IMG/VR virus record: IMGVR_UViG_3300049060_000085
Span: 10,771 to 74,770 of that record
Direction: 5' to 3' (one strand)
Length of the DNA stretch: 64,000 nt
Origin: a virus
Below the pieces are notes generated by a model, which worked only from the letters and a program-made list of their open reading frames with translations, searched no databases and was not told where the DNA came from. The translations under genes and the position numbers were made by a program. This document shows, in pieces, positions 34,161-58,621 of this stretch. Numbering within the stretch: the stretch's first letter is position 1; the number at the start of each line of letters is the position of its first letter.

Positions 34161-34172
34161 CTCATCCCGGAG
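34161..34172 (-). promoter_or_regulatory. late motif CTCCGGGATGAG, copy 1
   Basis: 14 nt upstream of ATG 34146. Confidence 0.7.
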
Positions 34173-34191
34173 AAAGGTTGCTCACAATCGA

Positions 34192-34572
34192 TCACAGGTT
34201 GCTGCGGTAGCGCTTGAGCACGCCATCAGCGCTTTTTCGGATGACGCGGAACGTCGCCTCTTTGTCGGTGATCCAAAAATGCTCGGCCACGCCCGCGAAC
34301 AGAGGCCAGCTGACGCTGGCGGATGCCGAGGGGTTGCCGCCCGTGCTTGGCAGTCCCGAGGCGAAATGGATGTAGCAATCCACATCGCAAACGAACGTCA
34401 CCCAGCACCCGCCGATAGGAATGCCGCTGGGGAGCGTGGTTGTCGCTCCCGTGGAGACCGATGTGACGCTGGTTGCATCGACTACCGCGAGAGGATCCGT
34501 CGCCCCGTCTTCGTACGTGGCAGTGGACGCATGCGGCGCCCTGCGCGCGATGGCTCCTGATTGTCCAAGCAT
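34192..34572 (-). CDS. putative virion protein
   Basis: GGAGGT SD; beta-rich. Confidence 0.7.
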   Translation of the reverse strand: MLGQSGAIARRAPHASTATYEDGATDPLAVVDATSVTSVSTGATTTLPSGIPIGGCWVTFVCDVDCYIHFASGLPSTGGNPSASASVSWPLFAGVAEHFWITDKEATFRVIRKSADGVLKRYRSNL

Positions 34573-34586
34573 AGCGCGACCTCCGT

Positions 34587-35009
34587 TCAGCTAGACCACG
34601 CGCAGATGGTTGCGGCCACTGACACGGTTCCGCCGCCGCTCGTGAACGTCCACAAGGGCCGCGCGTAGCGAGGGAAACTTGTGAAAGTCAGCACGGCCTC
34701 GGTTGTGCCGATGCCAAGGTTGTTGAATGTCAGCAGGCCTGTGGTGCTGCTGAATGTGATGCCGGATGCGAGCACGCTCGCGGTGCCGGAGTTCACGATG
34801 GGAAGCGCGATGGCTTGATCGGCCGCGCGGTTCTCGTCGTTGGTTCCACCCATTCCGAACGTGGCTTGCAGCGTCGCCGCGGTCACGGTGACGACCAGGC
34901 CCACCGACACGTGGCTGCAGTTGGCGATCTTGATCGTGCGGCCGATCTGCGTCCCGCTCGAACCGAGCAGCGCCACCTCTTGTACTAGGAAGTCTTTTCT
35001 GTCTGCCAT
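34587..35009 (-). CDS. beta-sandwich virion protein, tandem paralog 3
   Basis: shares NC..V, SGITF, F..F.R...FTSGGGT, W with 35023-35856. Confidence 0.8.
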   Translation of the reverse strand: MADRKDFLVQEVALLGSSGTQIGRTIKIANCSHVSVGLVVTVTAATLQATFGMGGTNDENRAADQAIALPIVNSGTASVLASGITFSSTTGLLTFNNLGIGTTEAVLTFTSFPRYARPLWTFTSGGGTVSVAATICAWSS

Positions 35010-35022
35010 GACACAACCTCTT

Positions 35023-35433
35023 TCAGGTGGACCAGCCAGAGATCGTGACCTTGTTGGAGATCGTGCCGCCGCCGCTTGTGAAGGTGAACACGGGGCGCAC
35101 GAAGCGCGTGAACGCGCTGTAGGCGACGGTGATTTCCGCGGTGGCCGCGGCGCCCGTCGCGAACGTCACAGCGTTCGAAGCGAACGTGATGCCCGAAGGC
35201 AACGCGGTGATCGCCGTGCCGCCGGTGAGCACGGGGAGCGCCACGGAAGTGTCGAGCGCGCGGTCGGCGTCGTTGGTGCCGGTGAGCGTGAGCGTTCCGA
35301 CCAAGTTGATCGCGGACGTGGTGATGACGATGGTCATCAACACCTTGTCGCAGTTGGTCACCTTGACCGCGCGACCGGTCTGCGTTGCGCCGACGCCCTC
35401 GAGGGCCACTTCAGATACCGAAAAATCAGCCAT
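35023..35433 (-). CDS. beta-sandwich virion protein, tandem paralog 2
   Basis: NCDK..LPVLTGG..PSGITFASNA..FTSGGGT..GWST. Confidence 0.8.
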   Translation of the reverse strand: MADFSVSEVALEGVGATQTGRAVKVTNCDKVLMTIVITTSAINLVGTLTLTGTNDADRALDTSVALPVLTGGTAITALPSGITFASNAVTFATGAAATAEITVAYSAFTRFVRPVFTFTSGGGTISNKVTISGWST

Positions 35434-35445
35434 AAATCCTCACTT

Positions 35446-35856
35446 TCAAACGGACCAAGCGCCGAGCGTGGCGCGAACATCGACAGTGCCACCGCCGCTC
35501 GTGTAGTCGTACACAGCGCGGACCCATGCGGGAAAACTCGAATAGGCGATCGTGACTTCGTACGTACCGATCGCCGGGTTGTTCAGCGTGATCGCGTTGC
35601 TTGCGAAGGTGATGCCGCTCGGGGCGGCGGTGATAAGCGCGCCGGTTGTGAGTACGGGCAGCGTGCTGGTCGGCTCGAGCGCTGTAACTGGGTCGCTCGT
35701 GCCGGTGAGCGCGATCGTAGCCTGAAGCGTGGCCGCTGTCACCGACAGCGTGATGGTCAGCGTGAGCTTGTCGCAGTTGCTGACCTGCACGGTGAGTCCG
35801 GACACGTCGGCGTCGGAGCCGGCGAGCACGGGTTGGCTCTTGAAAATGTCGGTCAT
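35446..35856 (-). CDS. beta-sandwich virion protein, tandem paralog 1
   Basis: NCDK..LPVLTTG..PSGITFASNA..YTSGGGT..GAWSV. Confidence 0.8.
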   Translation of the reverse strand: MTDIFKSQPVLAGSDADVSGLTVQVSNCDKLTLTITLSVTAATLQATIALTGTSDPVTALEPTSTLPVLTTGALITAAPSGITFASNAITLNNPAIGTYEVTIAYSSFPAWVRAVYDYTSGGGTVDVRATLGAWSV

Positions 35857-38279
35857 GCGTTACTCCGCTGAATCTGAGGTGCGTAGATCTGCTCTACGAA
35901 GATGGGATCTGTGCGCACGAGCCGCTCTGTCACAGCCGCGCGCGCGTCGTCGGTCCGAGCCTTGTTGTAGTCGTCCGCCCAAGGCATGAACGCGCTCGGG
36001 TTGGCCTTCATGGAAGCGGTCGTGTCGCGACCAAGTGTCATGCCGGCGGGCATGCCTTGCAGCGAAGACGTGGGCCCGTTCGGGTCTTTTTCGTCTGCAG
36101 CCGCTGGCGGCGGCGACGGCGGGCGGAACCCATCCCGGATGGCAGCGGCTTCGGCGCCGACGGGCATCCGCGCCTTTTCGCTGACGCGCTCCATCATGTC
36201 TGCGGTGTCGCCGCTCAGCCACTGAGCGTGGATGGAGTGCTTGCGCGGCTGGTACCAATGGTTGACCGCCATGCCGGCGCCCGCGCCCAGCGCGCCCAAC
36301 CCGCTTGCCCCAAGTGCGCCCGCGCCGAGGCTGTATGCGAGCCCGCCGCCGACGCTTCCGAGCGCAGAGCCCAGGGCACTGTTGCGCACGTCGAAGAATG
36401 GAGGGGCGTCGTGACGCGCGGAGCTCGCTTGGTCGCGCAGGAGGTTGAGCGTGCCCAAGTGCGCTTTCGAGTCCGCCCACTGCGTGGCCAGCTCCGGATC
36501 GGCGCGCTCCGCGCCAAGGTCCATCGCGTGATCGATGGCCGCGTAGCGCTCGCGCGCAAACGCGTCTTCAGGCTTCGCGAGCTCAGGCCTGATCGGCTGA
36601 CCTGCCTTGTTGAGCTCGTCGAGGTACGCGTTGAACGGCACGGGCGCAGGCCCGAGGTCTGCCATGGGCGCAGGCGCAGGCGCTTGGGCGCCGAGTCCGC
36701 GCATCCACGCGTCGGGATCGACAGGCGTTGCCGGTGACTGATTCGCAACCGGCAACGGCGGAGGCGGCAGAGCTTGTGCAGCCATTGGCGGTGGCGAAGC
36801 CTGTGCGGCGAGCGCGCCGATGGGATCGCCCACCACGGGCGCAGGAGATGCGCCCAGTGCTCCGAACGCGCTGGACTCGGGCGAAGCGCCAAGCAGCGAT
36901 CCAAACGCCGATGCCGGCGCCGGGGTGGGCGGCAGATTGGGTGCTGGGGCAGCGCTGGGCGGCGGCGTCATCGTTGGCAACGGAGGAGGCGCTGGCGGCA
37001 CCTGCTGCGGGCCGCCGGCGGCCGCCAGGGCCCCAACGGGATCGGGAGCCGGGGGTGCGGCTTGCACCGGTGACACGCGCTCGACTGGCTCCATGATGCG
37101 ACCGCCTGGGATGCCCATGCCGGAGTCCGCGTAGCGCTGCGCGATCGCGTCTGCGCCCGCCACATAGTCGGACGACAGTGGAGCGCCGTAAGCGGCCGCG
37201 GGGCTGCGCTCGCGAACATCCGCGCGAAACTTGTCGTGGATGTCCATCGGGTCGACGGTGGCGCCGCCCTGCGTCAGCGCTTCGACGGCCGCGTCCTTCG
37301 CGAGTCGCGCCTCGTCTCGAGCGCCTTGCACCGACGACGCCATTTCCGGCACCGTGTACGAGCCGCCGCGCTCGCCAGCGATGCGTCTGATTTCACTAAG
37401 GACGTTGCCGTATTTTTCCGGCTGCGCCGCGAGCTCGTCGATCGCCTTGTCGTCGTAGCCCGCGCTGCGCAAGAATTCATGATCGGCGTCTTGCGCGCGC
37501 AGCGCTCGGGCTTCAGGCGTGGCCTGACGCGCGGCGCTTCTTGCCGCCGCATTGCTTACCAGCGCGCCCGGCAACGCAAACGCGGCCGTGGCAGCAGCTC
37601 CGAGTTTGCCCGGCGCTTCTACCTGTCCTGTGTCGCCGTACTGACGCACAGCGTCCTCGCCGGCGCCGATCGCCATCTGTTCGCCGACTTCACCCAACAC
37701 GCGCCCCACCCCGGGCTTGATGAAGCGCGCAGCTGCAGCGATCTTGTTGACGGGACTCGCAAATGAGCCCACGAAATCGCCTGCGGCAAAGAGCGCCGGA
37801 TTGTCGCGCTCAGCGTCCATGCTCCACTGACGCACGGGTGCCGCGGCGTCGATCATCTGTCCAGCCGCGCGGTCGAGCCCAGCCGTGTACCCATGCACAC
37901 CGCCCGCGACCATGCTGCCGAGCGCGCGCGGTGCGCCGCCGTAGTCCGTGGGCTGCATGGTGGAGGCTTGCGCCGAAAACCCTGTGGGGTCCTCGCTGCC
38001 GCCGAGTAGACCGCGCAACCAGTCGCCGCCGCTCGGAGCTTCGGGCGTGGCTTCGCGCACCTCAGTCATGTTGAGCGAGCGACCAAGCGGCTTTTCGCTG
38101 CGAATCACCTCGGGCGTGCCCACGGTCATCTCAGCTTGCGGAGCTTCGCCCGCGTCGACCTCTTCGTCGTCGACACTCGTCGGAGACAAACCCTTCTTGT
38201 CCATGTCGTCCATGAACGCATCGAGCTTGTCTTCGGGGATGTTGAAGGTGCGCCCTTGTACTTTCCAGCGGGTACCCAT
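35853..38279 (-). CDS. internal virion/ejection protein (Pro-rich centre)
   Basis: 808 aa, Ala/Gly-rich helical, third large gene after nozzle. Confidence 0.7.
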   Translation of the reverse strand: MGTRWKVQGRTFNIPEDKLDAFMDDMDKKGLSPTSVDDEEVDAGEAPQAEMTVGTPEVIRSEKPLGRSLNMTEVREATPEAPSGGDWLRGLLGGSEDPTGFSAQASTMQPTDYGGAPRALGSMVAGGVHGYTAGLDRAAGQMIDAAAPVRQWSMDAERDNPALFAAGDFVGSFASPVNKIAAAARFIKPGVGRVLGEVGEQMAIGAGEDAVRQYGDTGQVEAPGKLGAAATAAFALPGALVSNAAARSAARQATPEARALRAQDADHEFLRSAGYDDKAIDELAAQPEKYGNVLSEIRRIAGERGGSYTVPEMASSVQGARDEARLAKDAAVEALTQGGATVDPMDIHDKFRADVRERSPAAAYGAPLSSDYVAGADAIAQRYADSGMGIPGGRIMEPVERVSPVQAAPPAPDPVGALAAAGGPQQVPPAPPPLPTMTPPPSAAPAPNLPPTPAPASAFGSLLGASPESSAFGALGASPAPVVGDPIGALAAQASPPPMAAQALPPPPLPVANQSPATPVDPDAWMRGLGAQAPAPAPMADLGPAPVPFNAYLDELNKAGQPIRPELAKPEDAFARERYAAIDHAMDLGAERADPELATQWADSKAHLGTLNLLRDQASSARHDAPPFFDVRNSALGSALGSVGGGLAYSLGAGALGASGLGALGAGAGMAVNHWYQPRKHSIHAQWLSGDTADMMERVSEKARMPVGAEAAAIRDGFRPPSPPPAAADEKDPNGPTSSLQGMPAGMTLGRDTTASMKANPSAFMPWADDYNKARTDDARAAVTERLVRTDPIFVEQIYAPQIQRSNA

Positions 38280-40178
38280 TCAGCGCTCCTCGTAGTCTTC
38301 CCAGTCGGTGAGGTCGACGGCTTCGATCGGCACGCTCGGCACCGGCTGAACACCGAGATTGTCGCCAGCGTCACCGCCCGAGCTCGTGCTGGGCGGTCTA
38401 TTGGACTGCTTCTTTGCGGCCTGCGGGTGAACATCGTCTAGGCTGCCCTCGGCTCCAACCGCTGCGGGCGCAGCGCTCGGCTGCAGATGTCCGAGCCAAC
38501 GTTTGGGATCTCGAATGTTGCCACCGGCCAACGACTGCGCGGCCAAGTCTGGCGCTGCCGCAGCGGCGTTGCCGAGCTGTGAAGTCAGCCGCGAACGAAG
38601 GATCTTCACCGAGTCTTTGATGTCTTGGAGCGTGGCCATCGGGCTCTGGGCGCTGGCGATGGCGGCGCGCATCTCTTCGCGCTCGTTGCCGCTCGCGCCC
38701 GTGTCGATGCGGTACACGCTTTCGGCAAGTCGGTTCAGGAGCTTGCGGTTGTAGTCGGCTTCGGCTTGGAACTTGTTGTACTCGTCATCACCGACGAGTC
38801 CCGCGATGCCGCGCAGCGCCTGCCCCAACGGGTACTTGTCTGCACCTTCTTTGAGCTGCTCGATACCGAGCCCCGGAGGCAGTTTTTTGGCTCGCTCCGC
38901 AGCCGCGATCACATCGTCGAGCTCGTCTACGAGCGACGCTGTGTCGATCTGCTTGGTGTGCTTGTTCCCGTACTCGGTGATCCAAGCTCGGTTTTTGTCT
39001 TCTTTGCGCGCTGTAGCAGCATCTGTACGGGCGCCTTCAGCGGCGGCGGTGCGACGCCTGGCCTCTTCCAAAGCCTCTCGCTGCAGCTTGTCGGCTGCGA
39101 TTTGATCGGGCGTCTGCGGCTTCGTTCCAAGCTGCTCGGCCTCGGCTTTGCGCCGCGCCGTTTCCGTGGTGTAGACGGTGTCGGCCTTGGTGTCTTTGGC
39201 CGCGTTTTCGGCTTCGATCGTGCCCGTCGCGCGACCCGCGGCCTTGACCTCTTCGGCGTGCCCGGCCTTTTGGACCATCGGCTCCGAGAGGTTGTAGTCG
39301 CGTCGGAACGACGGCATGGCTTGCGCCCAACCCTTGTCGTCGAGTCCCGCCGCGGCTTCGATCTTGGCGGGGTCCGCGCCGTTGAGCTTCATGAGCTCGA
39401 GCATCGCCGCGCGACTGCCTTTGCTGGCCTCCGCCGCAAGCGCATCCTTGGTGGCCTTGCTCGCAGCGGTTTGAGTCAGTCGCCCTTCACGGCCCTGCGC
39501 GGTCTGAATGCGCTGCATCGCCAGCATCTGGTTGACCGGATCGCTGTGCGCGCCGCCGGTCATCAGCTTGCGCCGGCCCTCCTCGAAACTGCGCTTGTCC
39601 GAATCGGCCTGTTGCAGGATGCCAGGGATCGAGCGGCCTTTGTTGAGGGCCACATCCACGAGGATCGCCCAGCCGTTGACGCCCGGAGCGCCGCGCTTGT
39701 CGTACTCTTCGAGCTGCCTGCGCTGCATCTCCTGGCCGCGCAGCATGAGCGCCTCGAACGGATCTTGTGCAGGCGGCGGTTCGGTCTTCGCCGTGCCCTG
39801 CCCAGGGTTTGTGAGCTCTTTCATCTCAGGGCTCGCACCTGCGCTGTCCACGCCCTTGGTGGGTGCCGCTCCGAGCGGCGGAGTCTCGGGCGCCGCGGGT
39901 GCCTCAGGCGACTCGGGCGCGAGCTCCATGGGCTCAGGCTCGGGCATCGGCTCGGGCAGGCTCATCGAAGCAAGCGCGGAGACGGCGCGATCGGCCGGCG
40001 GCTCGGGAACGGGCTCCATCTGGAACTCGGGATCGAGCGCGAGCCCGCCGGGCGACATGGCAGAGTCTTCGGGCGTGCTTTGCGCCGCGAGCGCCGCGAG
40101 CGCGGCGGTGCGCCGGCGCTCCTCTTCGTCGGGGTCGTAGCCGAGCAGATTGCTTTGAAGCTGGAAGTCCATGATCAC
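38280..40178 (-). CDS. internal virion/ejection protein
   Basis: 632 aa, charged coiled-coil. Confidence 0.7.
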   Translation of the reverse strand: MIMDFQLQSNLLGYDPDEEERRRTAALAALAAQSTPEDSAMSPGGLALDPEFQMEPVPEPPADRAVSALASMSLPEPMPEPEPMELAPESPEAPAAPETPPLGAAPTKGVDSAGASPEMKELTNPGQGTAKTEPPPAQDPFEALMLRGQEMQRRQLEEYDKRGAPGVNGWAILVDVALNKGRSIPGILQQADSDKRSFEEGRRKLMTGGAHSDPVNQMLAMQRIQTAQGREGRLTQTAASKATKDALAAEASKGSRAAMLELMKLNGADPAKIEAAAGLDDKGWAQAMPSFRRDYNLSEPMVQKAGHAEEVKAAGRATGTIEAENAAKDTKADTVYTTETARRKAEAEQLGTKPQTPDQIAADKLQREALEEARRRTAAAEGARTDAATARKEDKNRAWITEYGNKHTKQIDTASLVDELDDVIAAAERAKKLPPGLGIEQLKEGADKYPLGQALRGIAGLVGDDEYNKFQAEADYNRKLLNRLAESVYRIDTGASGNEREEMRAAIASAQSPMATLQDIKDSVKILRSRLTSQLGNAAAAAPDLAAQSLAGGNIRDPKRWLGHLQPSAAPAAVGAEGSLDDVHPQAAKKQSNRPPSTSSGGDAGDNLGVQPVPSVPIEAVDLTDWEDYEER

Positions 40179-42208
40179 CCGCCGTAACGCTTGCGAATGG
40201 CCGCCGCGTCTTCTTCTTCGCTGTTTTGGCCGATGCCGAATCCACCCAGCAGGCCGTTGCGCGAGCCGATGATCGGCAGACCGAAGATGCCCGTGCTATC
40301 GGCACGGTGTTGCGCGCTGTTGGCTGCGAGCGCTGAATCAAGCGCCGCTTTCTGTGCCGCGACACCAGCGATTTCGACTTGGTTATTCCCAAGCAGCTGG
40401 TTGGTGGTCCAGCGCGAGTTGTCTGTGCCCATGCCCGCCAGTAGGTTCTGCTGCGCTTGGTTCGTGTTGTTCGTGTTGATTTGCGCGCCCTGCACACCGA
40501 GTCGTCGGTTGAGCTGATCGTTCTCCAAACCGTTGCCCACGCCGCCAACAGCCATGTTCGTGCGCACGCCTTCCGCGTCGCGCAGGTAGTTCTGGTTCAG
40601 CACGCTGGTGGTGCCGTTGAAGATGTTGCTGGCGTTGTTGCTGTTTTGCGCGCTGGCATTGAGCTCGAGGCCAGACAGGTCCGTGGTGCGTCCCCACAGC
40701 GCATCGCGCTCGCGCTGTCTGAAGAGCTCGTTGAAGCTGTCCACGTTGTAAGCGTCGTCCTGCATCGCATTGGCCTGGTTGCCAGACGCGATCTGACCGC
40801 TGAGCCGTGTTTGCTGGTTGTTCGCGCTGGCCGTGTCGGCCGCAACGCCGCGCTTGTAGGCCTGGTCGAAGCTCGACTGCTGTGCGGTCTCAGCACCTTG
40901 CTCGTACATGCCAAGCGCTTGCAGCTGACGATTCGCGTTGCCCGTGGCAAGCGCGTTCGCTTCGCTGTTCAGTTGCGTCCCGAGCTGACCTTGCAGGCGC
41001 AACATGTCTTGCGATCGCGCCACGGCTTGTGCGCTCGCGGCGAGGTCCGAAAGTACGCGCTGCTGTGCGATCTGCTGGCTGCCCAGCGCGCCGAGTGTGA
41101 GCTCTGCGCCGCCGCCCGCCATACCGCGACGACGAAGGTTGCTCATCTTGGCGCCGTCGAGCGCGCGCTGGTCCATCTCCCAGCCCTGGCGAGCCTTCTC
41201 GTAGAGGAAGTTCTCCGCGTCCGTGACCGCGGGGTTGGTCAGCGCAGAAGCCTTGTCCAAGGCCTCCATCGCCGCCGCGTAGGCCTTGGGGTCCTCCTGG
41301 CCTACGTGGACATCCTTCGAGCCCTTGCTGACGTCGTAGAGGTCGGCAAGGCCTTGGTCGCGCATGGCGACGTAGCGCGGGTCCGCGTAGGCGCCAGCGG
41401 CCTGGGATTGGTAGTCGAGCGCGCCGTTGGCGGTGCCTTGGAGCTGGCTGAGCGCTTGCTGTTGCGCTGCCCAGGCCTCGGGGTTGAGGGCGAGCTGGCT
41501 CTCCAGCGGCGTGGCCAGCTGATCGTACATACCTTGCGCGCGACCGATGGTGGCGTCGTTGCGCGCGCTTAGGTCGTTGAGCGTGTTGGTGTAGCTGCCA
41601 AGCGCGTCGAGCGAGCCTTGGTTGGCCGTGCCGCGCGCGGCGTCCAGCTTGCCGGCTTCGCCGCGCAGCATGTCGATGTAGGCTGCGTTTCGCGGATCCT
41701 GCGCGTTGATCAGATTGTTCATCTGGTCGAGCGCGGCCTGGTTGTTCTGGTTCGTTCCCTTTGAAAGCTCTTCGAGGCGCTGAAGCGCCTCGTCGTTTTG
41801 CTGCGAGGTGTTGTTGATGAGGTCGCGGTTTTGTTTGAGTATCCGCTGCTCGGGCGTGAGGTACGCGGTGTCGCCGCCGCTCTGCTCGTACGCGCGTTGC
41901 GGCGCTTGTTGCGCGATGGGATTCGCTTTTTGTTCAGCAAGGCCCTTCGCGATGTACGCCTGCTGCTGCTCGGGCGTCATCGAGTTGAAGAGGTAGGTGC
42001 CGAAGTCCGACGCCATCAAATCGCCGGTGTAGCCAGCGGCTTGATCCGAGGGGCCTTGTGCAAAAGTCTCGGTGGTTGCCGAACGCGGCGGCGGCAGCAC
42101 CGCGCGCGACTGCGCGCCGGCATTGGTCGGCGGAGGCGCGCTCGACCTAACAGCAGCCGCGGGGACCCACCGCTGGGAAGCTTGATCCCATACAAGATTT
42201 TCAGGCAT
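40175..42208 (-). CDS. internal virion/ejection protein (Q/N/A/G-rich)
   Basis: 677 aa, composition typical of podovirus pilot proteins. Confidence 0.7.
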   Translation of the reverse strand: MPENLVWDQASQRWVPAAAVRSSAPPPTNAGAQSRAVLPPPRSATTETFAQGPSDQAAGYTGDLMASDFGTYLFNSMTPEQQQAYIAKGLAEQKANPIAQQAPQRAYEQSGGDTAYLTPEQRILKQNRDLINNTSQQNDEALQRLEELSKGTNQNNQAALDQMNNLINAQDPRNAAYIDMLRGEAGKLDAARGTANQGSLDALGSYTNTLNDLSARNDATIGRAQGMYDQLATPLESQLALNPEAWAAQQQALSQLQGTANGALDYQSQAAGAYADPRYVAMRDQGLADLYDVSKGSKDVHVGQEDPKAYAAAMEALDKASALTNPAVTDAENFLYEKARQGWEMDQRALDGAKMSNLRRRGMAGGGAELTLGALGSQQIAQQRVLSDLAASAQAVARSQDMLRLQGQLGTQLNSEANALATGNANRQLQALGMYEQGAETAQQSSFDQAYKRGVAADTASANNQQTRLSGQIASGNQANAMQDDAYNVDSFNELFRQRERDALWGRTTDLSGLELNASAQNSNNASNIFNGTTSVLNQNYLRDAEGVRTNMAVGGVGNGLENDQLNRRLGVQGAQINTNNTNQAQQNLLAGMGTDNSRWTTNQLLGNNQVEIAGVAAQKAALDSALAANSAQHRADSTGIFGLPIIGSRNGLLGGFGIGQNSEEEDAAAIRKRYGG

Positions 42209-48620: not shown

Positions 48621-48692
48621 AAAGACCTCCGAAAATCCACTGGGGCCGCGCGAACGGAGCAGTCGTTCGCGCAACCCCAGAAGAGCGTTTGA

Positions 48693-50003
48693 TTAGCTCG
48701 CGAGTGCCACGCCGCCGTTGGCGGTGTTGTTCGCGATGCCGGTGATCAAGAAGTTCCGGTACGGCATCTCGAACACAGGCGCTTGATTGCTGAAGATCTT
48801 CATCTGCGCACCCGCGTTGCCGGTGAGGTGCGTGAAGAAGGCCTCGGCGCCTCCGCCGATCGGACGCATGGTCAAGTCGGTGCTACCCACACGACGGAAG
48901 TTGTCGTTCGAGATGAAAAACGCTTGGCCTTGCTTCGCGTACTGATACACGACGACTTCGACCTGACCGGCCGCCGTCTCGTAGATCAGCTGCGATGCAC
49001 CTTGGCGCTTCACCTTGTCGGTGTTCGCCGTGTAGCGCTGCAGCGCGTTCGCCTCTTCGGCGAGGTCTGCGAAGGTCGGCGCGCAAACGAAAAGCTTGCC
49101 TCCGTTCTTCACGCCGTTGATGGAGACGGCCGCGGCCATCGCCATGATCTTCGCGCGGGACATGGCGCCACCGGCACCGAACGTCATGCAGCGCCACGGA
49201 GCCACGTTGGCGGCATTGATGCCGAAGATCGAGCCCGTGTTGTTGTAGATGGCTTCGAGCCCGAAGCACGACTTGGTGCGCCAGCCGAGCGGCACGATCT
49301 TGTCGTTGGCGGCGACGGTCGCAGCCGAAGCCGCCTTCGTCAGCTGCAAACGCGTTTGCGTGGTGCTCGGACGCGCGTCCACGTTGACGTTGGTCTCGCG
49401 CAGCGTGGTGCCATCGGTCTGGTAGATGTCTACCTTCATGCCGTTGGTGCCAGTCGCGATGATCCACAAGCCGGGGATCCAGCTCGCTTCGGTGAGGTAC
49501 ACGACCTGGGTCGCGCCCAAGTTCGCGCCGCTCACGCTTCCGCCGACCACACCGATGTTCGATGCGACCGCGGTCGAGGTGCCCGGACCGTAGGCCAGTG
49601 CGAGCTCGCGGTAGAGCGCCGCACCTTGCAGCATCGCTTGCACCGTCTGGTCGAGCGCGGTCTTGTAGGCAGGCCCCTGATTGCCATTGCCCGTGCCGTT
49701 GAGCGACTTGTAGATGGTGTCGTAGCTGACGACCGACTGCAGCAAGATCGTTGCGCCGTCGAGGTTTGCGTTCAGCACCGTCGAGTCCACCGCAGGGTTC
49801 AGTGCGAACGCGGAGCCGTCGACGTTGGCTGTTTGACCAAGCTCCAAGCCGGTCAAGACGGGGAAGTTGTAGCCGAGACCAGGACGGTTCTCGGAAGGGA
49901 TGAAATCGCCGAAATCTGCGAGGGTGTGCTCATCCGGCAGCGGGTCGATCCATCGACCGTAGCGCTGCTTAAACATGCCGTTGACTGAAGGCACAGATGC
50001 CAT
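48693..50003 (-). CDS. major capsid protein (HK97 fold, podovirus type)
   Basis: 436 aa, after scaffold, long leader and GGAG SD; GLGYNFPVLTG, FGLEAIYN. Confidence 0.8.
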   Translation of the reverse strand: MASVPSVNGMFKQRYGRWIDPLPDEHTLADFGDFIPSENRPGLGYNFPVLTGLELGQTANVDGSAFALNPAVDSTVLNANLDGATILLQSVVSYDTIYKSLNGTGNGNQGPAYKTALDQTVQAMLQGAALYRELALAYGPGTSTAVASNIGVVGGSVSGANLGATQVVYLTEASWIPGLWIIATGTNGMKVDIYQTDGTTLRETNVNVDARPSTTQTRLQLTKAASAATVAANDKIVPLGWRTKSCFGLEAIYNNTGSIFGINAANVAPWRCMTFGAGGAMSRAKIMAMAAAVSINGVKNGGKLFVCAPTFADLAEEANALQRYTANTDKVKRQGASQLIYETAAGQVEVVVYQYAKQGQAFFISNDNFRRVGSTDLTMRPIGGGAEAFFTHLTGNAGAQMKIFSNQAPVFEMPYRNFLITGIANNTANGGVALAS

Positions 50004-50446
50004 AACACGAACTCCAAAACGTTAGGGTTGAGAGCCCTTTCGTTCGGGGTGCCGTGCGTCGTGCGTCTTGCCTGCGTGCCGCTTATGGCTGCGAGGTCCT
50101 ACTGGGGTTCGGCCGGTGGTTTTCCGTAGCCGAAGCACTTCGGTTGCCGCGCTGATATGTCCACAGAGGTGCAGTGACTACAGAGCAGGGTTCCTACACG
50201 AAGGTTGATTGTCAGGTCCGGATGATTGGCCGAGCGGCGTGCCTTGGGCGAGTTGAATAACCCTAAGGCACGACCGCTGGACGCCTACGCTCCGGGATGT
50301 GTTCGTAGGCCGCGCGCGGGTCCGGGGAAGTTGCTAGGTCCGAACTCAGGCGCACGTACGATATTCTCTGCGTGAGGAATTTGTCGCCGTCAAGCAAAAG
50401 TGACGCGACTTACCAACTCGCTTCAGAATAGCTGAAAGAGCTGGAT
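50004..50446 (-). ncRNA. 443-nt structured leader or ncRNA upstream of the capsid gene
   Basis: stems at 50283-50310, 50233-50278 (about 16 bp), 50108-50143 (alternative pairings), 50024-50038. Confidence 0.55.
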
Positions 50447-52441: not shown

Positions 52442-52448
52442 ATCAAAC

Positions 52449-54734
52449 TCACTGCATGGCGCCCGCCGGTGGCGAGCTTGGCTGAGGAAGCGGTGTGCCG
52501 TTGCCAGACGCGCCGGTAGGGCCTGCCACTTGCCCCGAGACGTCTCCGCTGTTCTGCATGGTGGCCTGGTCGCTCGGCGCCGCCTGCGCGCTTAGACCGC
52601 CGTCTGGCGGCTGCGCGCCGGGCATGCCGCCACCGCCCTGCGCTGGGTTGGCAGCGCCTGAGTTGGCGCCCTGCTGCTGCGGCTGCCCGAGACCTTGCAG
52701 CTGGCCCGTGGCCAGCATGAACTCGAAGGTCATGTTGCCGCGCGGCGCCATCGGATTCGGCACGATCGGCGGAGGCGGGGGGATTTGCTGGAACTGCGCG
52801 ACCAGCGGGTTGAGCTGCAAATACGCTTCCGTGTGCGCCTGCAGGTGCAACCGCACGCGCATGATCGCCTCCAGGTCGGGGACGTCCGCCGCCATCAACT
52901 GCTCCAGCATGGCGTTGTGGAGCGGCCAGTGCTTGAAGGGGTTGTCGCCGGGCATGACGGGCACGAGGCCTTCGCCGGTGACCAGGCGCTCGTTTTCCTT
53001 GCGGATGAGCATCTCGGCGCTGTTTTCGGTCTTGAGCCAGCGCGTGGTGTTGCCGGTGGTGACCATCTCGTAGGTCGCCGCGCGATCTTCATCGGGCATG
53101 TTGCGCAGCGCGGTGGCGATTTGCAGACGGCCTGCGGTCGACTGCATGAGCGGGCTGATTTGCTCGATGTCGACGCGCTGCACGCCGGACAAGTCTTCCT
53201 TGGTGAACTCGGCGACGTACGAGCGCTGCTCGATGCCGGCGATGTCCACCAAGAACGGCGTTTCGCCGTAGCGCGTGATGAGGTCTAGGATGATTTGCGC
53301 GCCGTCGATGCGGAACTTGCGCGCGGCGTCTTGGCGGAACGATTGGTAGCGAATCGCGATGCTGTCGAGCAGCGCGTTCATTTCTCCAGAGCGGACGTTG
53401 GGGTCCGGGTCGCCGCGGCTGGCCGCGTTCTGACCGGAAACCGTGTCCAGCATCTTGTGCAAATAGCTTTTGAGATCCGGAAGCGTCGCCGGTACAGCAG
53501 CAAGCTGCACTGCTTTCGGCATCTGGGCGTTGGGAGGGACGTAAAACGCAGTACCTTGAGCGAGCGCATCGAGGGTGACCTCAGTGCCCTTCTCTATCGC
53601 GATGCTTTGACGACCAAAGGTCGCGTAGTTTTGCATTTCATCGCTGTTGACCTGGTTCAACGCTTGCTGAATCGCGATGAGGTCCCACGCATCCGCATAC
53701 CCAAACGTCGACTCGATGAAGCGTCCCGACTGCATCACCGCGATGGGCAAGCCACGTTTGCGCGGACACGGGCCGTCCCAGAGAATCACGTCACCCGCCA
53801 TCATCACGTAGCGGCCCTCGGGCACCGCGGCGCAGCGACGGTGATAGAAGTGCTTGACGGTGAGCTGGTCCTTCGAGCTGTAGTAGAGCTCCTCGAGGCG
53901 AAAGAGCGTGCCGAAGTCGTACCGGTCGTAGTCGGTTTTGACCGCCAAAAGCTCGTCACGCTTCGCCGGGAAGTTGGCGATCAAGTTCCAGCGGTTATCC
54001 AGCTCGCGGACCATGCGCCACTGGTGCTCGCCGGCGACCCGCGGCTCTTGAACAAGCGCCCACGGGTACACCACGGTGACGATGGGCTCGCCCGACTTCT
54101 CGATCGAGAAATGCTGCGCCGTGGTGCCGTCCTCCAGCTGGATGTCACGCGGCACCTTCATGTCGTCGCCGCCGAGGAAGTCCCAGCGGTAGTGCGTTGC
54201 GCCGAGGCCAAAGACGCCGTCGCCCTCCGCGGCGTCCATGTCGAGCGGCGCGCTGTAGCGCTTGTATAGCGAGTTGATGATCTTGTCGGTGAGCACGCTC
54301 TTCGCAAACGAGCGGTGGTCGCTGTTGCTCACAAGCGCCTTGAACGCTGCAGGCTCACCCAGCGCCAAAGACGTCTGATGTCGGATGTACGGGCGAATCA
54401 GGTTCAGGTGAAAGCGCAGAAGCTCCAGCTCGTTGCCACTGAATCCGATCGTCTGCGTCGCGAAGTCGCGCAGGTCGTCCGGCGTCAGGCCGTGGTGGGC
54501 GGCGTAGGCCACGACCCACATCGCAAGCAGGCCGCGGTTACGCGCGCTCTCGAAGAAGGCCTCTTCTTTGGCTTTGATCTCCGAGATGAAGTCCGGTCCC
54601 GACTTGCGCGCCCAGTAAATCTGGGACGGGTCGATGACCGGCTCTTCTTCCGGGTCGATAGGCCGAAGCGGGTCGCTGAGATCGGAGGCAGCGCCGAGCT
54701 GATCGAATGGAACTACGTTTTCTTGACCCAACAC
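52449..54734 (-). CDS. portal protein
   Basis: 761 aa between TerL and scaffold; LNLIRPYIRHQ..GEPAAFK, QQALNQVNSDEM, Q/P/G-rich C-terminal barrel. Confidence 0.85.
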   Translation of the reverse strand: MLGQENVVPFDQLGAASDLSDPLRPIDPEEEPVIDPSQIYWARKSGPDFISEIKAKEEAFFESARNRGLLAMWVVAYAAHHGLTPDDLRDFATQTIGFSGNELELLRFHLNLIRPYIRHQTSLALGEPAAFKALVSNSDHRSFAKSVLTDKIINSLYKRYSAPLDMDAAEGDGVFGLGATHYRWDFLGGDDMKVPRDIQLEDGTTAQHFSIEKSGEPIVTVVYPWALVQEPRVAGEHQWRMVRELDNRWNLIANFPAKRDELLAVKTDYDRYDFGTLFRLEELYYSSKDQLTVKHFYHRRCAAVPEGRYVMMAGDVILWDGPCPRKRGLPIAVMQSGRFIESTFGYADAWDLIAIQQALNQVNSDEMQNYATFGRQSIAIEKGTEVTLDALAQGTAFYVPPNAQMPKAVQLAAVPATLPDLKSYLHKMLDTVSGQNAASRGDPDPNVRSGEMNALLDSIAIRYQSFRQDAARKFRIDGAQIILDLITRYGETPFLVDIAGIEQRSYVAEFTKEDLSGVQRVDIEQISPLMQSTAGRLQIATALRNMPDEDRAATYEMVTTGNTTRWLKTENSAEMLIRKENERLVTGEGLVPVMPGDNPFKHWPLHNAMLEQLMAADVPDLEAIMRVRLHLQAHTEAYLQLNPLVAQFQQIPPPPPIVPNPMAPRGNMTFEFMLATGQLQGLGQPQQQGANSGAANPAQGGGGMPGAQPPDGGLSAQAAPSDQATMQNSGDVSGQVAGPTGASGNGTPLPQPSSPPAGAMQ

Positions 54735-54745
54735 ACGAAACTGCC

Positions 54746-54757
54746 CTCATCCCGGAG
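54746..54757 (-). promoter_or_regulatory. late motif CTCCGGGATGAG, copy 2
   Basis: 11 nt upstream of portal GTG. Confidence 0.7.
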
Positions 54758-54767
54758 CGCAGTGACT

Positions 54768-55079
54768 TCAAACAAATGCTTCGAGCTCGTCCAAACACCA
54801 GACCGAGTCTTTGGTCTTCATGTGCGCGAGCACGCGTTCCGCGTCGAGCTTCGCGGCCCACGGGTACTTGACGGTGTCGCGGCACGGATAGCAACGCAGG
54901 ACGTACGAAGCCTGGTGAGGTTCCTGCTCCCAGCCGACCGCGAGCATTCTCTGCTGACTTTCGGCAGTTCGCAGTTTGTGCCAGTCGTAGCTTTCCTGCG
55001 CGCAAAACGCGCAAGTCGGCCGGATGGTCTTCATGCGCTCGATCAGCGCCGCGGCGTCTTTGAGCGTGGGCTCTTCCAT
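54768..55079 (-). CDS. zinc-ribbon protein
   Basis: CAFC..CYPC; TGATG coupling. Confidence 0.65.
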   Translation of the reverse strand: MEEPTLKDAAALIERMKTIRPTCAFCAQESYDWHKLRTAESQQRMLAVGWEQEPHQASYVLRCYPCRDTVKYPWAAKLDAERVLAHMKTKDSVWCLDELEAFV

Positions 55080-55678
55080 CAGCAGCTCTGCAGCATGATG
55101 TACTTGGGGAGCTCGCCCTGCTTCTTGCTCGGCGCATCCGGTTGGATGACGGCCCAAGGCGTCGCGAGCGCGCCGATGGCGTTCAGAAAGCTCGAGCGGT
55201 TGATCTCACTGGACCAGCCGTTTTGGCCTTCGTTCCAGTGGTCACGCGCGCGCACGGGGCCGAGGATGTGTACGTCTTGGGCGAGCTCTTCGACCGGCGT
55301 GTGCACGGTGATGCGGGCGCCGTCGCGGTCCTCGCGGAAGGTTTGCGCTTCCTTTAGGCGTTTGCGGCCGTAGCTCTTGCGCACGGCGACGTAGACCACG
55401 GTGCTCTTGTTGAGCGCGTCCACGTTGAGCCGATCGCACAGGCAGTCGGTGAGGATCTCTTCGGAGAGCTCGGGATAGAGCTTGCGAAGCAAGACCGCTG
55501 CGGCCTCGATCTCTTCATGCGCGGGCGCGAGAAACCGCGTCAAATACGGCGATTCCATGTGCGGCACGCGATGCGTGACGAAGCCGGCGTCCTTGAGGTC
55601 TTGCCGGAGCGCGGGGTCTGCGGGCGGTTGTTGGGTGGCTTGGTGTTTGTCTTTGGGGTTTGTCTGAACTTCGGGCAC
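55079..55678 (-). CDS. hypothetical protein
   Basis: 199 aa. Confidence 0.75.
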   Translation of the reverse strand: MPEVQTNPKDKHQATQQPPADPALRQDLKDAGFVTHRVPHMESPYLTRFLAPAHEEIEAAAVLLRKLYPELSEEILTDCLCDRLNVDALNKSTVVYVAVRKSYGRKRLKEAQTFREDRDGARITVHTPVEELAQDVHILGPVRARDHWNEGQNGWSSEINRSSFLNAIGALATPWAVIQPDAPSKKQGELPKYIMLQSC

Positions 55679-55689
55679 GGACTCGTCTG

Positions 55690-55702
55690 CTCTATCCCGG
55701 AG
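55690..55702 (-). promoter_or_regulatory. late motif variant CTCCGGGATAGAG, copy 3
   Basis: 11 nt upstream of GTG 55678, 10 nt after the tRNA-Asn CCA. Confidence 0.6.
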
Positions 55703-55712
55703 AAGACGTTTT

Positions 55713-55788
55713 TGGCTCCAAGGGCAGGGTTCGAACCTGCATAGTCCCGGTTAACAGCCGGGCGCACGACCATTTGTACTACCTTGGA
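55713..55788 (-). tRNA. tRNA-Asn(GUU) with encoded CCA
   Basis: acceptor TCCAAGG/CCTTGGA-G-CCA; anticodon arm CCCGG-CT-GTT-AA-CCGGG; T-arm GCAGG-TTCGAAC-CCTGC. Confidence 0.93.
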
Positions 55789-55797
55789 ACATGGCGC

Positions 55798-56049
55798 TCA
55801 GTCGCCGATCTCGGCCGCGATTTGCGCTGAGGTCAGCTCATCCTCGCAAGCGATGCCCTGATTCGCCGTCATGACCGCTTGGCGCACCAAGCGGATCGCG
55901 TACGTCTGATCAGCGCTCGCGGTGGTATTGCTCACGATGGTTTCGGCAAGCTTTTTGGCCGCCTCCCGGATGGCCACATAGCGCTTTTGCTGACCGGGGC
56001 GCGGCGAGTGATAGACGAACCAGTTGTCGAGGTCTGCTTGGGTGATCAT
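55798..56049 (-). CDS. Acb2/Tad1-like helical-hairpin nucleotide-sponge candidate
   Basis: DLDNWFVYHSP..QQKRYVAIREAAKKLAETI..SADQTYAIRLVRQAVMTANQGIA. Confidence 0.65.
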   Translation of the reverse strand: MITQADLDNWFVYHSPRPGQQKRYVAIREAAKKLAETIVSNTTASADQTYAIRLVRQAVMTANQGIACEDELTSAQIAAEIGD

Positions 56050-56402
56050 GTCTGCTCTTTCAAAATGTCGTCGATGTTCGGCTCGGCGAAACGTTCGGCG
56101 AGCGCGGGGGGTTTGGCTTTGGACTTGGCCTTCGCTTCGGGCACGACGCGCACGAAGTACGTGCCGAGCTCCTCGGGAGGCATAGCGTCGTAGACGGCCG
56201 GAGTGCCCGGGTAAGTGATGACGGCGTCGCCGTAGCGCACGTACTTGTGCTGCTTGTTCGTGCCAGCGAGGATGGAGCCCACAACCGTTTCGTCTTCGTA
56301 GAAGCTGTCCGGAGCCACCGCGACATGCCCGTGCGCGGGGTCGTAGAAGTCGACCAGCACGTGCAGCGGCGGCGCTTGTTTTTCTTCGTACACAAACGGC
56401 AT
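56046..56402 (-). CDS. hypothetical protein
   Basis: coupled on both sides. Confidence 0.7.
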   Translation of the reverse strand: MPFVYEEKQAPPLHVLVDFYDPAHGHVAVAPDSFYEDETVVGSILAGTNKQHKYVRYGDAVITYPGTPAVYDAMPPEELGTYFVRVVPEAKAKSKAKPPALAERFAEPNIDDILKEQT

Positions 56403-56755
56403 CAGAATTTCTTCTGGGACATGTTGCCCATGTGCATGGTGATCTTGGTGGCTTCGCTCATGCAGCGTTCCACCGCGTCTTTGACGTCGGTGCCCATGCG
56501 CTGAAGGATGCGGCCTTGCTTGGTGAGCTCGTCGCGAATCTCGTCGCGGTCGCGCAGCGTTTCACCGCGCAGCACCGATAGCTCCTCCCGTAAGCGCGCG
56601 ATCGCCGCGAGTGCGGTCTCCGCGGTCTCGCGCGCGTCGTGGTCGGCTGCGCGCTCGGCGCTGGGCTTGTCCCGGAAGAGGTTGAGCACGAGAGCGATAA
56701 CGAAGCCGCTCACGGCGGCCTTCCAAAGATGGATGAACAGGTCGACAATCGTCAT
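56402..56755 (-). CDS. N-terminal TM + coiled-coil protein
   Basis: LFIHLWKAAVSGFVIALVLNLF then heptads. Confidence 0.7.
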   Translation of the reverse strand: MTIVDLFIHLWKAAVSGFVIALVLNLFRDKPSAERAADHDARETAETALAAIARLREELSVLRGETLRDRDEIRDELTKQGRILQRMGTDVKDAVERCMSEATKITMHMGNMSQKKF

Positions 56756-56758
56756 GGG

Positions 56759-58597
56759 CTATCTGCGTCCTCGGCCACCGTCGTAGAGCTTGAGTCGGCC
56801 GCGCTGGTGGATGCCGTGCGCCGCGTTCTGGGCGTGCTCGAGGGCGAGCTCGTGCGGAGCCTTGGGCATCCAAGGCAGGCGTTCGATCACGGTGACACCG
56901 GCGGGGAACTCACGGAGAATGTGCTCGGGGGGGTGGGGCCGAGAATTCGTATACTGCTCGACCTTACGCACCATGTAAACGAGCGCCGAGGCCAAGTCGA
57001 AGTGTCCGTAGACCTCGTGTTCAGCTAGTTTTCCGCGTTTGTCGCGCTTTGCCGAATGCACGTGGTCGATGACCGCACCCGCGTGGGGGGAGAACCACAT
57101 CCGGCCCTCGCCGAGCCAGTTACGGACGTTGCGAATCATGGTGGTGAGCTCTTCCTTGGTGGTCGCCAAGAACTCGAGCCCGTAGTGCTCGTCGATGTCG
57201 CGGATGAGCTGCTTGTCGACGTCGCTCACGCGCGCGGCGGGGTTCAGGTGAAAGCCTTGTCGGTCGTAGTACGGGGTGATCGCACCGGGGATGGGTTTGA
57301 TGATCCAATCGCCTGGGCGTCGCTCGCTTGTGGGGCGATCGACGAGCGGGGTCGTCGCCATGCGATGGAGCTCGGGTGCTAGCTTTTCGTACTTGTCGCC
57401 GTGAAGAAGGTCGCGCCATCCAGCGTGGACGCCGTCGTGCTGCGCAGGGATTCGGCGCATACGAACGTCCGGCCACCGACCCCAAAGCACGAACTCGCGT
57501 GCTGCGCAGACAGCGCTGACTTCCATGGACCCTGCATTCGATTTGGCCCATGAATCCAGGATAAGTAGTCGGTCAGCGTCAAAGTCATACTCGCCCCAGA
57601 TAAGCCCGAATAAGTGCACTTGGCCAGGGTCTGCGGCGACAAACCCATACGCGTGCTTCGGCCTTTCGAAGTGGCGTACGTGGAGCTCGCGGGTGAACTC
57701 GGGGAAGGCTTTGAGGGCTGGGTCGCCGGCAATGATATTGAAGTATTCGCGCTCGCAGTTCGGGTTGCCGCGCCCGCCTGCCATGCCGATCCAGTAGTCT
57801 TTTTCGCGCCGGGTGAGCTTCGAGTTGTCCTCGATCGTCACCTCTGCGAATGCGCCGCGCCGTTTGGCGTCGGGCATCACGATGCGCTCCCAGTCCGTGT
57901 CTTGGTCCTCGGGCGCCGAGCTCTCCACCATCATGCGCGCCCAGGGGCGCTGCTGGTATTGGTGGATGAGGACGTTTCGGACCGCGTAGTCCAGATTGCT
58001 GATGAACGCTGCTTCGGAGACGAAGTCGAAGTCGTTCTCCTGGCCGCGCAGGGCGTCTTTGTTGACGTCGATGCCCGCGAGCGCGAGCCGTGCGCCGCCG
58101 GTCGGACCATCTTCGGGCCAGTACAAGCCGGCGGGGAGGATACCGCGCTTGCCGTGGTAGGTCGGCACCGCGTAGTCGGGCGCGGTGCTAAAGGCCTGCG
58201 TGACGACCGAGCCTGCGATCTCGTCGATGTTGCGCTGGAAGGCGCTCGTGAGGCGCATCTTGGCGGGTCGGCCGTATTTGCGGAAATACCAGACCGCAAT
58301 CTCGTACGCGACCCACAGGTACAGCGTGGTTTTGCCGAAGCGCTTGCCGCCCGCGATGACGAAAATCAGCGGGATGGAGCCGGTCTCGTGGACCTCCTCG
58401 AGCTGGTCGATCTCACGCCAGGCGTGGATCTGATTTCTCAGCGCGAGCTGCCCCGAATGCATGAGGCCGGAGAGGTCTCCGGTCTCCCATGAGAGGGCGA
58501 TGAGCTCCTCGTCTGTAAGCGCGTCGAGGTCAGCCTCGGTGAGCTGCTTTTCGAAGACGAGGGCGTCGGGGTCGTTTTCTAGGTCGTCAGGGTACAA
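56759..58597 (-). CDS. terL: terminase large subunit
   Basis: AGGKRFGKT Walker A, LRGQEND.DFVSEAAF Walker B region, ESSAP coupling motif, VAADPG nuclease Asp, GHFDLASALVY. Confidence 0.9.
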   Translation of the reverse strand: MYPDDLENDPDALVFEKQLTEADLDALTDEELIALSWETGDLSGLMHSGQLALRNQIHAWREIDQLEEVHETGSIPLIFVIAGGKRFGKTTLYLWVAYEIAVWYFRKYGRPAKMRLTSAFQRNIDEIAGSVVTQAFSTAPDYAVPTYHGKRGILPAGLYWPEDGPTGGARLALAGIDVNKDALRGQENDFDFVSEAAFISNLDYAVRNVLIHQYQQRPWARMMVESSAPEDQDTDWERIVMPDAKRRGAFAEVTIEDNSKLTRREKDYWIGMAGGRGNPNCEREYFNIIAGDPALKAFPEFTRELHVRHFERPKHAYGFVAADPGQVHLFGLIWGEYDFDADRLLILDSWAKSNAGSMEVSAVCAAREFVLWGRWPDVRMRRIPAQHDGVHAGWRDLLHGDKYEKLAPELHRMATTPLVDRPTSERRPGDWIIKPIPGAITPYYDRQGFHLNPAARVSDVDKQLIRDIDEHYGLEFLATTKEELTTMIRNVRNWLGEGRMWFSPHAGAVIDHVHSAKRDKRGKLAEHEVYGHFDLASALVYMVRKVEQYTNSRPHPPEHILREFPAGVTVIERLPWMPKAPHELALEHAQNAAHGIHQRGRLKLYDGGRGRR

Positions 58598-58609
58598 CGC
58601 ATGGCTTGA

Positions 58610-58621
58610 CTCATCCCGGAG
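58610..58621 (-). promoter_or_regulatory. late motif CTCCGGGATGAG, copy 4
   Basis: 12 nt upstream of TerL TTG. Confidence 0.7.

Follow-up and report, generated by a model that had tools for sequence, protein, structure and literature searches.

A capsid-leader hairpin and its complementary motif upstream of head-gene starts in an uncultivated phage: a putative RNA-RNA pairing system

The window analysed here, a stretch of 64,000 nucleotides (bases 10771-74770) taken from the 75,003-bp IMG/VR record IMGVR_UViG_3300049060_000085 of an uncultivated phage, judged complete, carries a short G-rich motif, the 12-mer CTCCGGGATGAG, just upstream of several genes for head assembly, and the complement of this motif in the first hairpin of the leader that precedes the major capsid gene. 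RNA-RNA pairing between the capsid leader and the head-gene start regions is in our judgement the best explanation of this arrangement and, on the sequence comparisons set out below, a reasonably probable one; the motif would then be the target half of a pairing system. An earlier note on this DNA had offered two readings, pairing of the capsid-leader RNA with the 5' regions of these genes and a late promoter. The former is supported by the finding that motif and complement covary in 12 genomes, as eight different pairs of sequences, the covariation of loop and targets having been named beforehand as its test; the latter is not supported, as discussed below.

Leader-target complementarity in the window and among clades

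Public assemblies contain 195 homologs of the capsid protein at E <= 1e-20, and 13 further contigs were taken for comparison among clades. The set on which the following statements rest comprises the 12 genomes that have the pair, with capsid proteins 61-100% identical to that of the window. In all 12 the portal start region contains, 12-16 nt before a GTG start codon, an exact complement of 8-13 nt to the genome's own capsid leader, and the portal gene is the sole target common to all genomes having the system. The complement of the G-rich portal motif lies at the top of the first leader hairpin, the leader site is reversed in every one of the 12, and eight different sequence pairs are found over the clades (Table 1). 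When the duplexes of 11 genomes are aligned on their core, positions +4, +5 and +6 each display three types of Watson-Crick pair and no mismatch; over the clades, several positions have at least three such types. Judged against random 40-nt windows of the same locus in 11 of the genomes (all but L069), the complementarity has an empirical P that does not exceed 0.007 in nine; for L061 it is 0.02 and for L060 0.2. The same seed recurs in several clades at the scaffold-like and 199-aa genes, and in L069 the portal target has a G, and the scaffold target an A, opposite the same leader U, giving a G-U and an A-U pair, respectively. No complement is found in the leaders of five relatives whose portal gene has a Shine-Dalgarno (SD) sequence and an ATG start. 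The covariation shows a functional link. Taken alone, it would fit a co-evolving protein that recognises the site in either orientation as well as it fits pairing.

Table 1. Target sequences and their complements in the capsid leader, by clade or genome
Clade or genome	Target	Leader
This clade	CUCCGGGAUGAG	CAUCCCGGAG
L060	CUCCGGGAUGGG	GUCAUCCCGGCG
L061	ACGGGAACG	CGUUCCCGU
L069	CAC(G/A)GGAAGG	CCUUCCUGUGG
L062	CGGGGUGACGAG	exact complement
L063	CACGGGUGACGAG	exact complement
L066	CUCGCGGGAUAG	exact complement
G005	UUGCGGGGUAG	CUACCCCGCAA

As a separate observation, the relative L064, in which the portal system is missing, carries AGAAGTGCG three times in forward orientation (4408-4417, 7144-7153 and 9139-9147), complementary to its capsid leader at 9911-9921. 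Two of the three are far from gene starts, and the copies may be due to chance or represent another variant.

Within the window itself, all five sites of the earlier note were confirmed at their coordinates by a check of the sequence (Table 2). Its further statements, that the forward copies stand 11-14 nt from the start codons and that the inverted copy occupies the loop of a GCCTACG/CGTAGGC stem, where it is complementary to the motif, agree with what we measured. Ranking of 111 start regions by the predicted energy of their duplex with the leader loop places the genes for portal (-27.0), the terminase large subunit (TerL, -24.7), a Gp80-like protein (-20.9) and a 199-aa protein (-17.0 kcal/mol) as the top four, the next best region reaching -15.8 and the median -10.1. 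At the portal gene, bases 54748-54762 could form 15 consecutive pairs with the leader hairpin, one of them G-U.

The motif would also be rare by chance, as the earlier note had proposed. Its exact 10-mer core, CTCCGGGATG, is present in four copies in the window, where dinucleotide shuffles lead one to expect 0.12 (the earlier estimate was about 0.25 per genome), and four or more copies were obtained in none of 100 shuffles; the whole 75,003-bp genome holds no additional exact copy, and a literature search found the 12-mer in unrelated papers only. One of the sites, that of the 199-aa gene, lies 10 nt downstream of a tRNA-Asn gene. Conservation in relatives is borne out by four genomes with portals 76-88% identical to that of the window, each of which contains three to five exact 12-mers, all on the late-gene strand, and one near-exact inverted copy; the flanks of the motif are not conserved. 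The sites precede the same genes, namely those for TerL, the 199-aa protein, portal, a scaffold-like protein and the Gp80-like protein, at 10-17 nt from their starts, and the motif pattern read backwards finds zero or one match in these genomes.

A space of 446 nt precedes the capsid gene and comprises, in this order, a sigma70-like promoter candidate, hairpin 1, hairpin 2, a 3' domain, and an SD with the ATG. On the capsid mRNA, hairpin 1 displays AACACAUCCCGGAG, the complement of the target loop together with its 5' side, and the anti-motif within this hairpin has a mean predicted probability of being unpaired of 0.71, compared with 0.36 for the rest. The stem differs in sequence among relatives, with its pairing maintained. 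More generally, most leaders place the core of the anti-motif in the apical loop of a strong hairpin, and in 9 of 11 this core has a higher mean probability of being unpaired than the flanks. Of the 11 genomes with the motif that were scanned, 8 have a comparable promoter-like pattern (TTGACn-N16-19-nAnnAT), which precedes the anti-motif by 24-63 nt. RNAalifold applied to the whole leader missed hairpin 1, because the 5' part of the leader aligns poorly; single-sequence folds recovered it. A search of Rfam gave no known family for the capsid leader.

Other parts of the leader have features of their own. Hairpin 2 (about window 50228-50272, minus strand) has a stem of 10-13 bp with many compensatory changes over five genomes and is without a U tail; the 3' two-thirds of the leader (window 50004-50230, minus strand) are conserved in sequence across clades, and a stem-loop directly before the SD is retained even by relatives without the pairing system. 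In L063 (9735-9790) the anti-motif pairs within the leader to an upstream GGGUGA, a mimic of the target, by which the seed could be made conditionally available.

Start-region hairpins, translation signals and the promoter alternative

The forward copies of the motif are themselves hairpins, a property that the earlier note had overlooked and that is new here. Folding places the 12-mer at the top of a stem-loop in which the loop, CGGGAU, is closed by CUC/GAG above a lower stem that varies; the foot of this hairpin is 2-7 nt from the start codon. Over 23 instances, 77.7% of cells are paired, compared with 64.3 +/- 2.3 in shuffled controls (none of 500 reached the observed value), the covariation score of 0.346 compares with 0.136, partners slid along the sequence pair in only 37-56%, and the mean minimum free energy (MFE) of -9.4 compares with -7.0 +/- 0.47 when the flanks are shuffled. 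The closure is kept in variants of the motif, both in CTCCGGGATAGAG, with its 7-nt loop, and in CCCCGGGATGGG, with a compensatory CCC/GGG. In L062 and L063 the forward copies are single-stranded rather than hairpins, whereas the leader copy is structured. An identity of the motif hairpins as intrinsic terminators was rejected, there being no T run behind any of them and none listed there by the terminator scan.

Translation signals set the motif genes apart. In other late genes an ATG is typically preceded, at 5-10 nt, by GGAG or GAGG, and the four motif genes have no such element; the earlier note had claimed the lack of a well-spaced SD for most of them, and it is lacking at all four. Over five independent loci with tool-called genes, none of 11 motif genes starts with ATG, compared with 69 of 86 other genes of the same loci (Fisher 2e-7), and none has an SD-like 4-mer at -18 to -5, compared with 65 of 86 (Fisher 1e-6).

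Two further roles for the motif in initiation were tried and rejected. As an SD in this clade, it forms a duplex of -4.8 with a generic 16S tail, compared with -5.2 for shuffled sequences; the motif variants in L062, L063 and L069 are SD-like. The ATG inside the motif was dismissed as a start codon, since none of the four genes is in frame with it. Separately, an SD-like GAGG or GGAGG abuts the GTG or TTG start in many relatives (gagGTG, ggaggTTG), at a spacing of zero, as exemplified at portal and TerL starts by L002 9935-9950, L003 5687-5702 and L062 5772-5788.

These start regions also bear on the second proposal of the earlier note, a late promoter of SigB/SigF type (GTTT-N-GGGTAT) read by an alternative host sigma or a phage factor, with the inverted copy driving an antisense RNA. 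It is true that the motif is short, conserved, one-directional and placed before late genes, and that its GGGAT core has a faint resemblance to GGGTAT. The TGA(A/G) described upstream of three copies is indeed present, but at TerL (58632-58634) and portal (54768-54770) it is the stop codon of the preceding open reading frame (ORF), and its position is not fixed in relatives; stop-codon identity and variable distance argue that it is not a fixed -35-like element. The motif, as the supposed -10 sequence, differs between clades and changes between close relatives, which would be unexpected if it were read by an unchanged host polymerase or sigma, and no fixed -35 spacing is seen. A start site 6-8 nt downstream would give leaders of 3-10 nt on genes with GTG or TTG starts, no ORF lies downstream of the inverted copy, and the capsid leader has a sigma70-like promoter candidate of its own. 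No phage sigma was detected, in that Sigma70_r2 had no match in the genome and Sigma70_r4_2 a stray match only (E 0.005); RNA_pol (PF00940) had no match either, an absence that is weakly shown, as the control found nothing in any genome. On balance we consider a promoter of this kind very improbable.

The stray Sigma70_r4_2 match, which is below the family threshold, falls in a weak helix-turn-helix (HTH) regulator encoded at 22907-23365 (minus strand). Divergent from this gene, at 23717-24124 (plus strand), is that of a 135-aa protein with a faint match to the anti-sigma domain zf-HC2 (E 0.0066, also below threshold).

Table 2. Features of the window discussed in the text
Feature	Position	Strand	Remarks
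12-mer CTCCGGGATGAG before TerL	58610-58621	-	12 nt to TTG start 58597
13-nt variant CTCCGGGATAGAG before 199-aa gene	55690-55702	-	11 nt to GTG start 55678
12-mer CTCCGGGATGAG before portal	54746-54757	-	11 nt to GTG start 54734
12-mer CTCCGGGATGAG before Gp80-like gene	34161-34172	-	14 nt to ATG start 34146
Inverted CTCCGGGATG	50290-50299	+	inside GCCTACG/CGTAGGC stem, 50283-50310, capsid leader
TerL start-region hairpin	58600-58630	-	12-mer at apex; MFE -12.4
199-aa gene hairpin	55684-55708	-	13-nt variant, 7-nt loop, CUC/GAG kept
Portal start-region hairpin	54740-54763	-	12-mer at apex
Gp80-like gene hairpin	34154-34179	-	12-mer 34161-34172
Capsid-gene leader (intergenic region)	50004-50446	-	hairpin 1, hairpin 2, 3' domain, SD GGAG 9 nt before ATG
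Leader hairpin 1	50283-50310	-	stem GCCUACG/CGUAGGC, loop AACACAUCCCGGAG; motif complement is plus-strand 50288-50299
Sigma70-like promoter candidate, capsid transcript	50363-50393	-	TTGACG (50388-50393), 19-nt spacer, GAGAAT (50363-50368)
Terminator-like hairpin after capsid gene	48640-48680	-	strong; 17 pairs, T-rich tail
Terminase large subunit gene (TerL; target)	56759-58597	-	phrog_2
199-aa gene (target)	55079-55678	-	without family or fold match
Portal gene	52449-54734	-	phrog_156
Major capsid protein gene (SU10-like)	48693-50003	-	weak SU10-type family match
Gp80-like head or fibre protein gene (target)	33715-34146	-	PF23140, 6e-28

Proposed mechanism and competing explanations

We propose that transcription of the capsid gene would begin at a promoter-like site of its own and finish at a strong terminator, its mRNA having about 380 nt of leader, and that the first leader hairpin would expose a C-rich loop, ACAUCCCGGAG. 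This loop may pair with the G-rich 12-mer 10-17 nt upstream of head-assembly gene starts, the presumed targets being portal in every genome, and TerL, the 199-aa, the scaffold-like and the Gp80-like proteins in some. Because the target in this clade is a hairpin with the loop CGGGAU, first contact could be a loop-loop kiss of 6 bp, extendable in this clade to 10-15 bp. Genes with no spaced SD and with GTG or TTG starts should be translated weakly by nature and therefore be open to control at the motif site, and pairing with the capsid leader RNA would set the output of portal, terminase and related proteins relative to that of capsid. We infer that the two RNAs meet; the leader could work in trans, supplied by capsid mRNA that is abundant, or in cis, within late transcripts that read through. 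By analogy with other regulators that have C-rich loops, and with c4 of phage P1, we lean somewhat towards a dampening of ribosome loading; activation is only a little less likely, because the targets are completely without SD and ATG.

A bolder version, which seems to us doubtful albeit conceivable, would make the capsid leader an RNA matchmaker needed in trans. Pairing of loop and 12-mer would then replace the pairing of SD and rRNA at genes that have neither SD nor AUG, production of portal, terminase and scaffold would be restricted to the places and times at which there is capsid mRNA, and the same layout might also explain the start-associated sequences (SAS) of Cluster K mycobacteriophages, to which we return below.

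Several points weigh against the pairing of leader and targets as proposed. L070 is an exception, with a GTG portal start and yet a leader-portal pairing not above that of shuffled controls, and L060 has only 8 contiguous complementary bases. The forward 12-mer of this clade is invariant at positions 11-12, not all of it leader-paired, and this invariance therefore implies a constraint besides the leader, at least that of the target's own hairpin. Flank positions 1-4 of the forward stems show four G-U as opposed to nine A-C combinations, by which the sense strand is not favoured (as an indicator of the folding strand, such counts were set aside as uninformative). The duplex, at about -12 to -28, would lie on the margin of the stretch that a 30S subunit usually covers; simple occlusion is therefore not guaranteed, and the direction of regulation is a guess. 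Finally, the covariation of an inverted repeat is equally expected from a co-evolving phage protein reading both orientations.

The last point amounts to an alternative in its own right, and one that we judge rather unlikely: the 12-mer would be the site of such a protein, be it a DNA-binding regulator with stoperator-like sites or an RNA-binding protein with a translational operator, and the leader copy would be an extra site. It would readily account for forward copies that are identical over the whole 12-13 nt within each genome, including positions that the leader of this clade does not match; a conserved hairpin loop on a variable stem is, moreover, typical of protein-recognised RNA operators, and the weak HTH protein described above is encoded in the window. 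An RNA-binding protein would, however, be blind to the leader copy, where the sense RNA is the complement and not the motif, and the forward copies of L062 and L063 are not hairpins whereas their leader copy is. A DNA site leaves unexplained the placement in an apical loop with stems that change between genomes, the fixed distance of 10-17 nt to the start codon, the loss of SD and ATG, and the alternation of A-U and G-U pairs in L069. As read from these sequences, all of these features would favour RNA, and so would the small number of G-U pairs, the promoter-like site just upstream of the leader hairpin, the single-stranded targets of L062 and L063, and the imperfection of inverted copies, since in this clade none of five is a perfect 12-mer, as opposed to 20 of 23 forward copies.

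The same RNA-RNA pairing might instead serve the processing or stability of RNA, for instance if RNase III cleaved the kissing or extended duplexes and so cut a late polycistronic RNA at head-gene starts. Both the complementarity and the hairpin-hairpin geometry are compatible with such a role. Long read-through RNAs containing both partners are plausible, because the scan found no terminator between TerL and the terminator of the capsid gene, and the tRNA directly before one target implies that RNA processing is already there. Duplexes of 9-15 bp are short for RNase III, however, and the tight link to missing SDs and non-ATG starts points to initiation, so that we regard a processing role as quite unlikely.

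A phage head is built from about a dozen portal subunits, a few terminase molecules and several hundred capsid subunits, and the ratio of head proteins is mostly ascribed to the strength of promoters and ribosome-binding sites. With pairing at the level of translation as the preferred reading, this phage family appears to wire that ratio into RNA, a loop at the 5' end of what is presumably the most abundant late mRNA being matched to the start regions of low-copy head genes, which have dispensed with the usual ribosome-binding signals; if true, an mRNA leader would act as a riboregulator of virion stoichiometry. The eight natural seed pairs, presumably orthogonal, might then also furnish parts for synthetic control.

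Genomic setting and comparison with known systems

The phage, probably a lytic podophage, has a G+C content of 62%, and its capsid, portal, TerL and Gp80-like genes are all on the minus strand. The 199-aa target has no Pfam or PHROG family and no lead in the Atlas; with a good model of it (predicted local distance difference test, pLDDT, 78.8), Foldseek found nothing at E <= 0.001 and the top VIA-align Z was 4.4. For a 451-aa protein there is a weak scaffold lead only. The public phage collection, queried with 11 kb of DNA and with the TerL protein, gave no similar record, and scans of IMG/VR and metagenome contigs with the capsid alignment, the leader pattern and the capsid of G005 returned the same five relatives and chance matches only. 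A search for the host, in which the amine oxidase was compared with genome contigs, produced matches that are 29-36% identical and lie in unrelated phyla.

Several neighbouring genes deserve mention. A small Cys-rich ORF with two CxxC pairs, zinc-ribbon-like, occupies window 54768-55079 (minus strand); it begins at an ATG overlapping with the end of the 199-aa gene, whose stop codon is part of TGATG, and itself stops 10 nt upstream of the portal motif. Auxiliary genes encode a SpoU-family RNA 2'-O-methyltransferase (window 14616-15197, plus), a flavin amine oxidase (16257-17594, minus), a vWA protein (27250-27864, plus) and a TerC-family membrane protein (27991-28593, plus). Outside the window, in bases 1-10770 of the record, a Ro60-like protein (TROVE and vWA, PF25045 at 4.6e-19) is encoded at 5680-7458 (plus) and is directly followed by a tRNA and then a YrlA-type Y RNA (features 7520-7591 and 7630-7766, both plus), the latter matching Rfam RF02553 with an E of 1.9e-11 and 58.4 bits, which falls short of the gathering score, 69; more weak YrlA-like matches are found near the Ro60-like gene. 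In relatives, small proteins with the Acb2/Tad1 hairpin domain (PF24729) are encoded near the head genes (L060 723-971, L061 1213-1584 and L070 5453-5668) and are candidate sponges for anti-defence signalling nucleotides.

Of the systems with which this one may be compared, trans-acting base-pairing RNA regulators share with it a contiguous complementarity to the initiation region (here an exact match of 8-13 nt, or as many as 15 bp when G-U is allowed), a covariation of regulator and target, and a seed that is predicted to be exposed in a loop. A phage antisense RNA of this kind is c4 of phages P1 and P7 (immI operon), short exposed stretches of which pair just upstream of a ribosome-binding site in the mRNA of their own operon; between P1 and P7, the c4 regulator and its target show matched differences. 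However, c4, a small processed RNA, acts on an antirepressor in lysogeny, whereas the present element is the 5' leader of capsid mRNA, with several putative targets in head assembly. In Staphylococcus aureus, RNAIII and RsaE use C-rich apical loops (UCCC) to pair with G-rich start regions, the complexes being hairpin-hairpin ones, and RNAIII is also an mRNA; these RNAs are host-encoded and target the SD itself, whereas the site described here is upstream of the would-be SD, at genes without one. The kissing hairpins of CopA/CopT (plasmid R1) and of RNA I/RNA II (ColE1) have complementary loops of 6-7 nt, and here the loops CGGGAU and AUCCCG could make a similar first contact; in those systems the partners are cis-encoded and match in full over a great length, as opposed to a complementarity of 9-15 nt between loci that are 4-16 kb apart.

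Among mycobacteriophages, the stoperators of Cluster A are asymmetric 13-bp sites that lie in short gaps between genes, follow the direction of transcription and co-evolve in sequence with a phage repressor (PMC3203893). The forward sites here are likewise asymmetric and oriented with transcription, the leader site being reversed, and no cognate repressor was identified, only a weak HTH protein; stoperators differ in being DNA sites without any tie to start distance, SD loss or hairpin loops. Closer in layout are the SAS of Cluster K, near-identical short asymmetric motifs standing in one orientation before the start codons of a subset of genes, whose partner, according to the authors, might be either an RNA or a protein, and of which some Cluster K genomes have a single reversed copy (PMC3203893, PMC12699233). 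The motif described here is also short, asymmetric, of one orientation and directly upstream of the starts of a gene subset, with three to five forward copies per genome. It differs in several ways. The SAS, GGGATAGGAGCCC, contains an AGGAG SD core, is 3-7 nt from an ATG-biased start and occurs in 11-19 copies in the non-structural arm (PMC3203893, PMC12699233), whereas the present motif, CTCCGGGATGAG, is without an SD core, 10-17 nt from GTG or TTG starts and associated with head genes, and its partner lies in the capsid leader and covaries with it across clades. In the Mycobacterium phage Anaya (JF704106; L072/L073), at about 59,850-59,900, we found the sole reversed SAS copy in the 10-nt apical loop of a hairpin of -26.7 kcal/mol, within a non-coding region of 385 nt that has a terminator at its beginning; the rightward strand of the loop has the sequence GCCUCCUAUC and is anti-SD-like. 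This is the same layout as that of the capsid leader described here and, coming from one genome, it is a lead only. The proposed pairing system provides a concrete, testable hypothesis for mycobacteriophage start-associated sequences, which have been unexplained since 2011. We conclude that the system would represent base-pairing RNA control of a known type, new in being borne by an mRNA leader and aimed at the stoichiometry of the virion.

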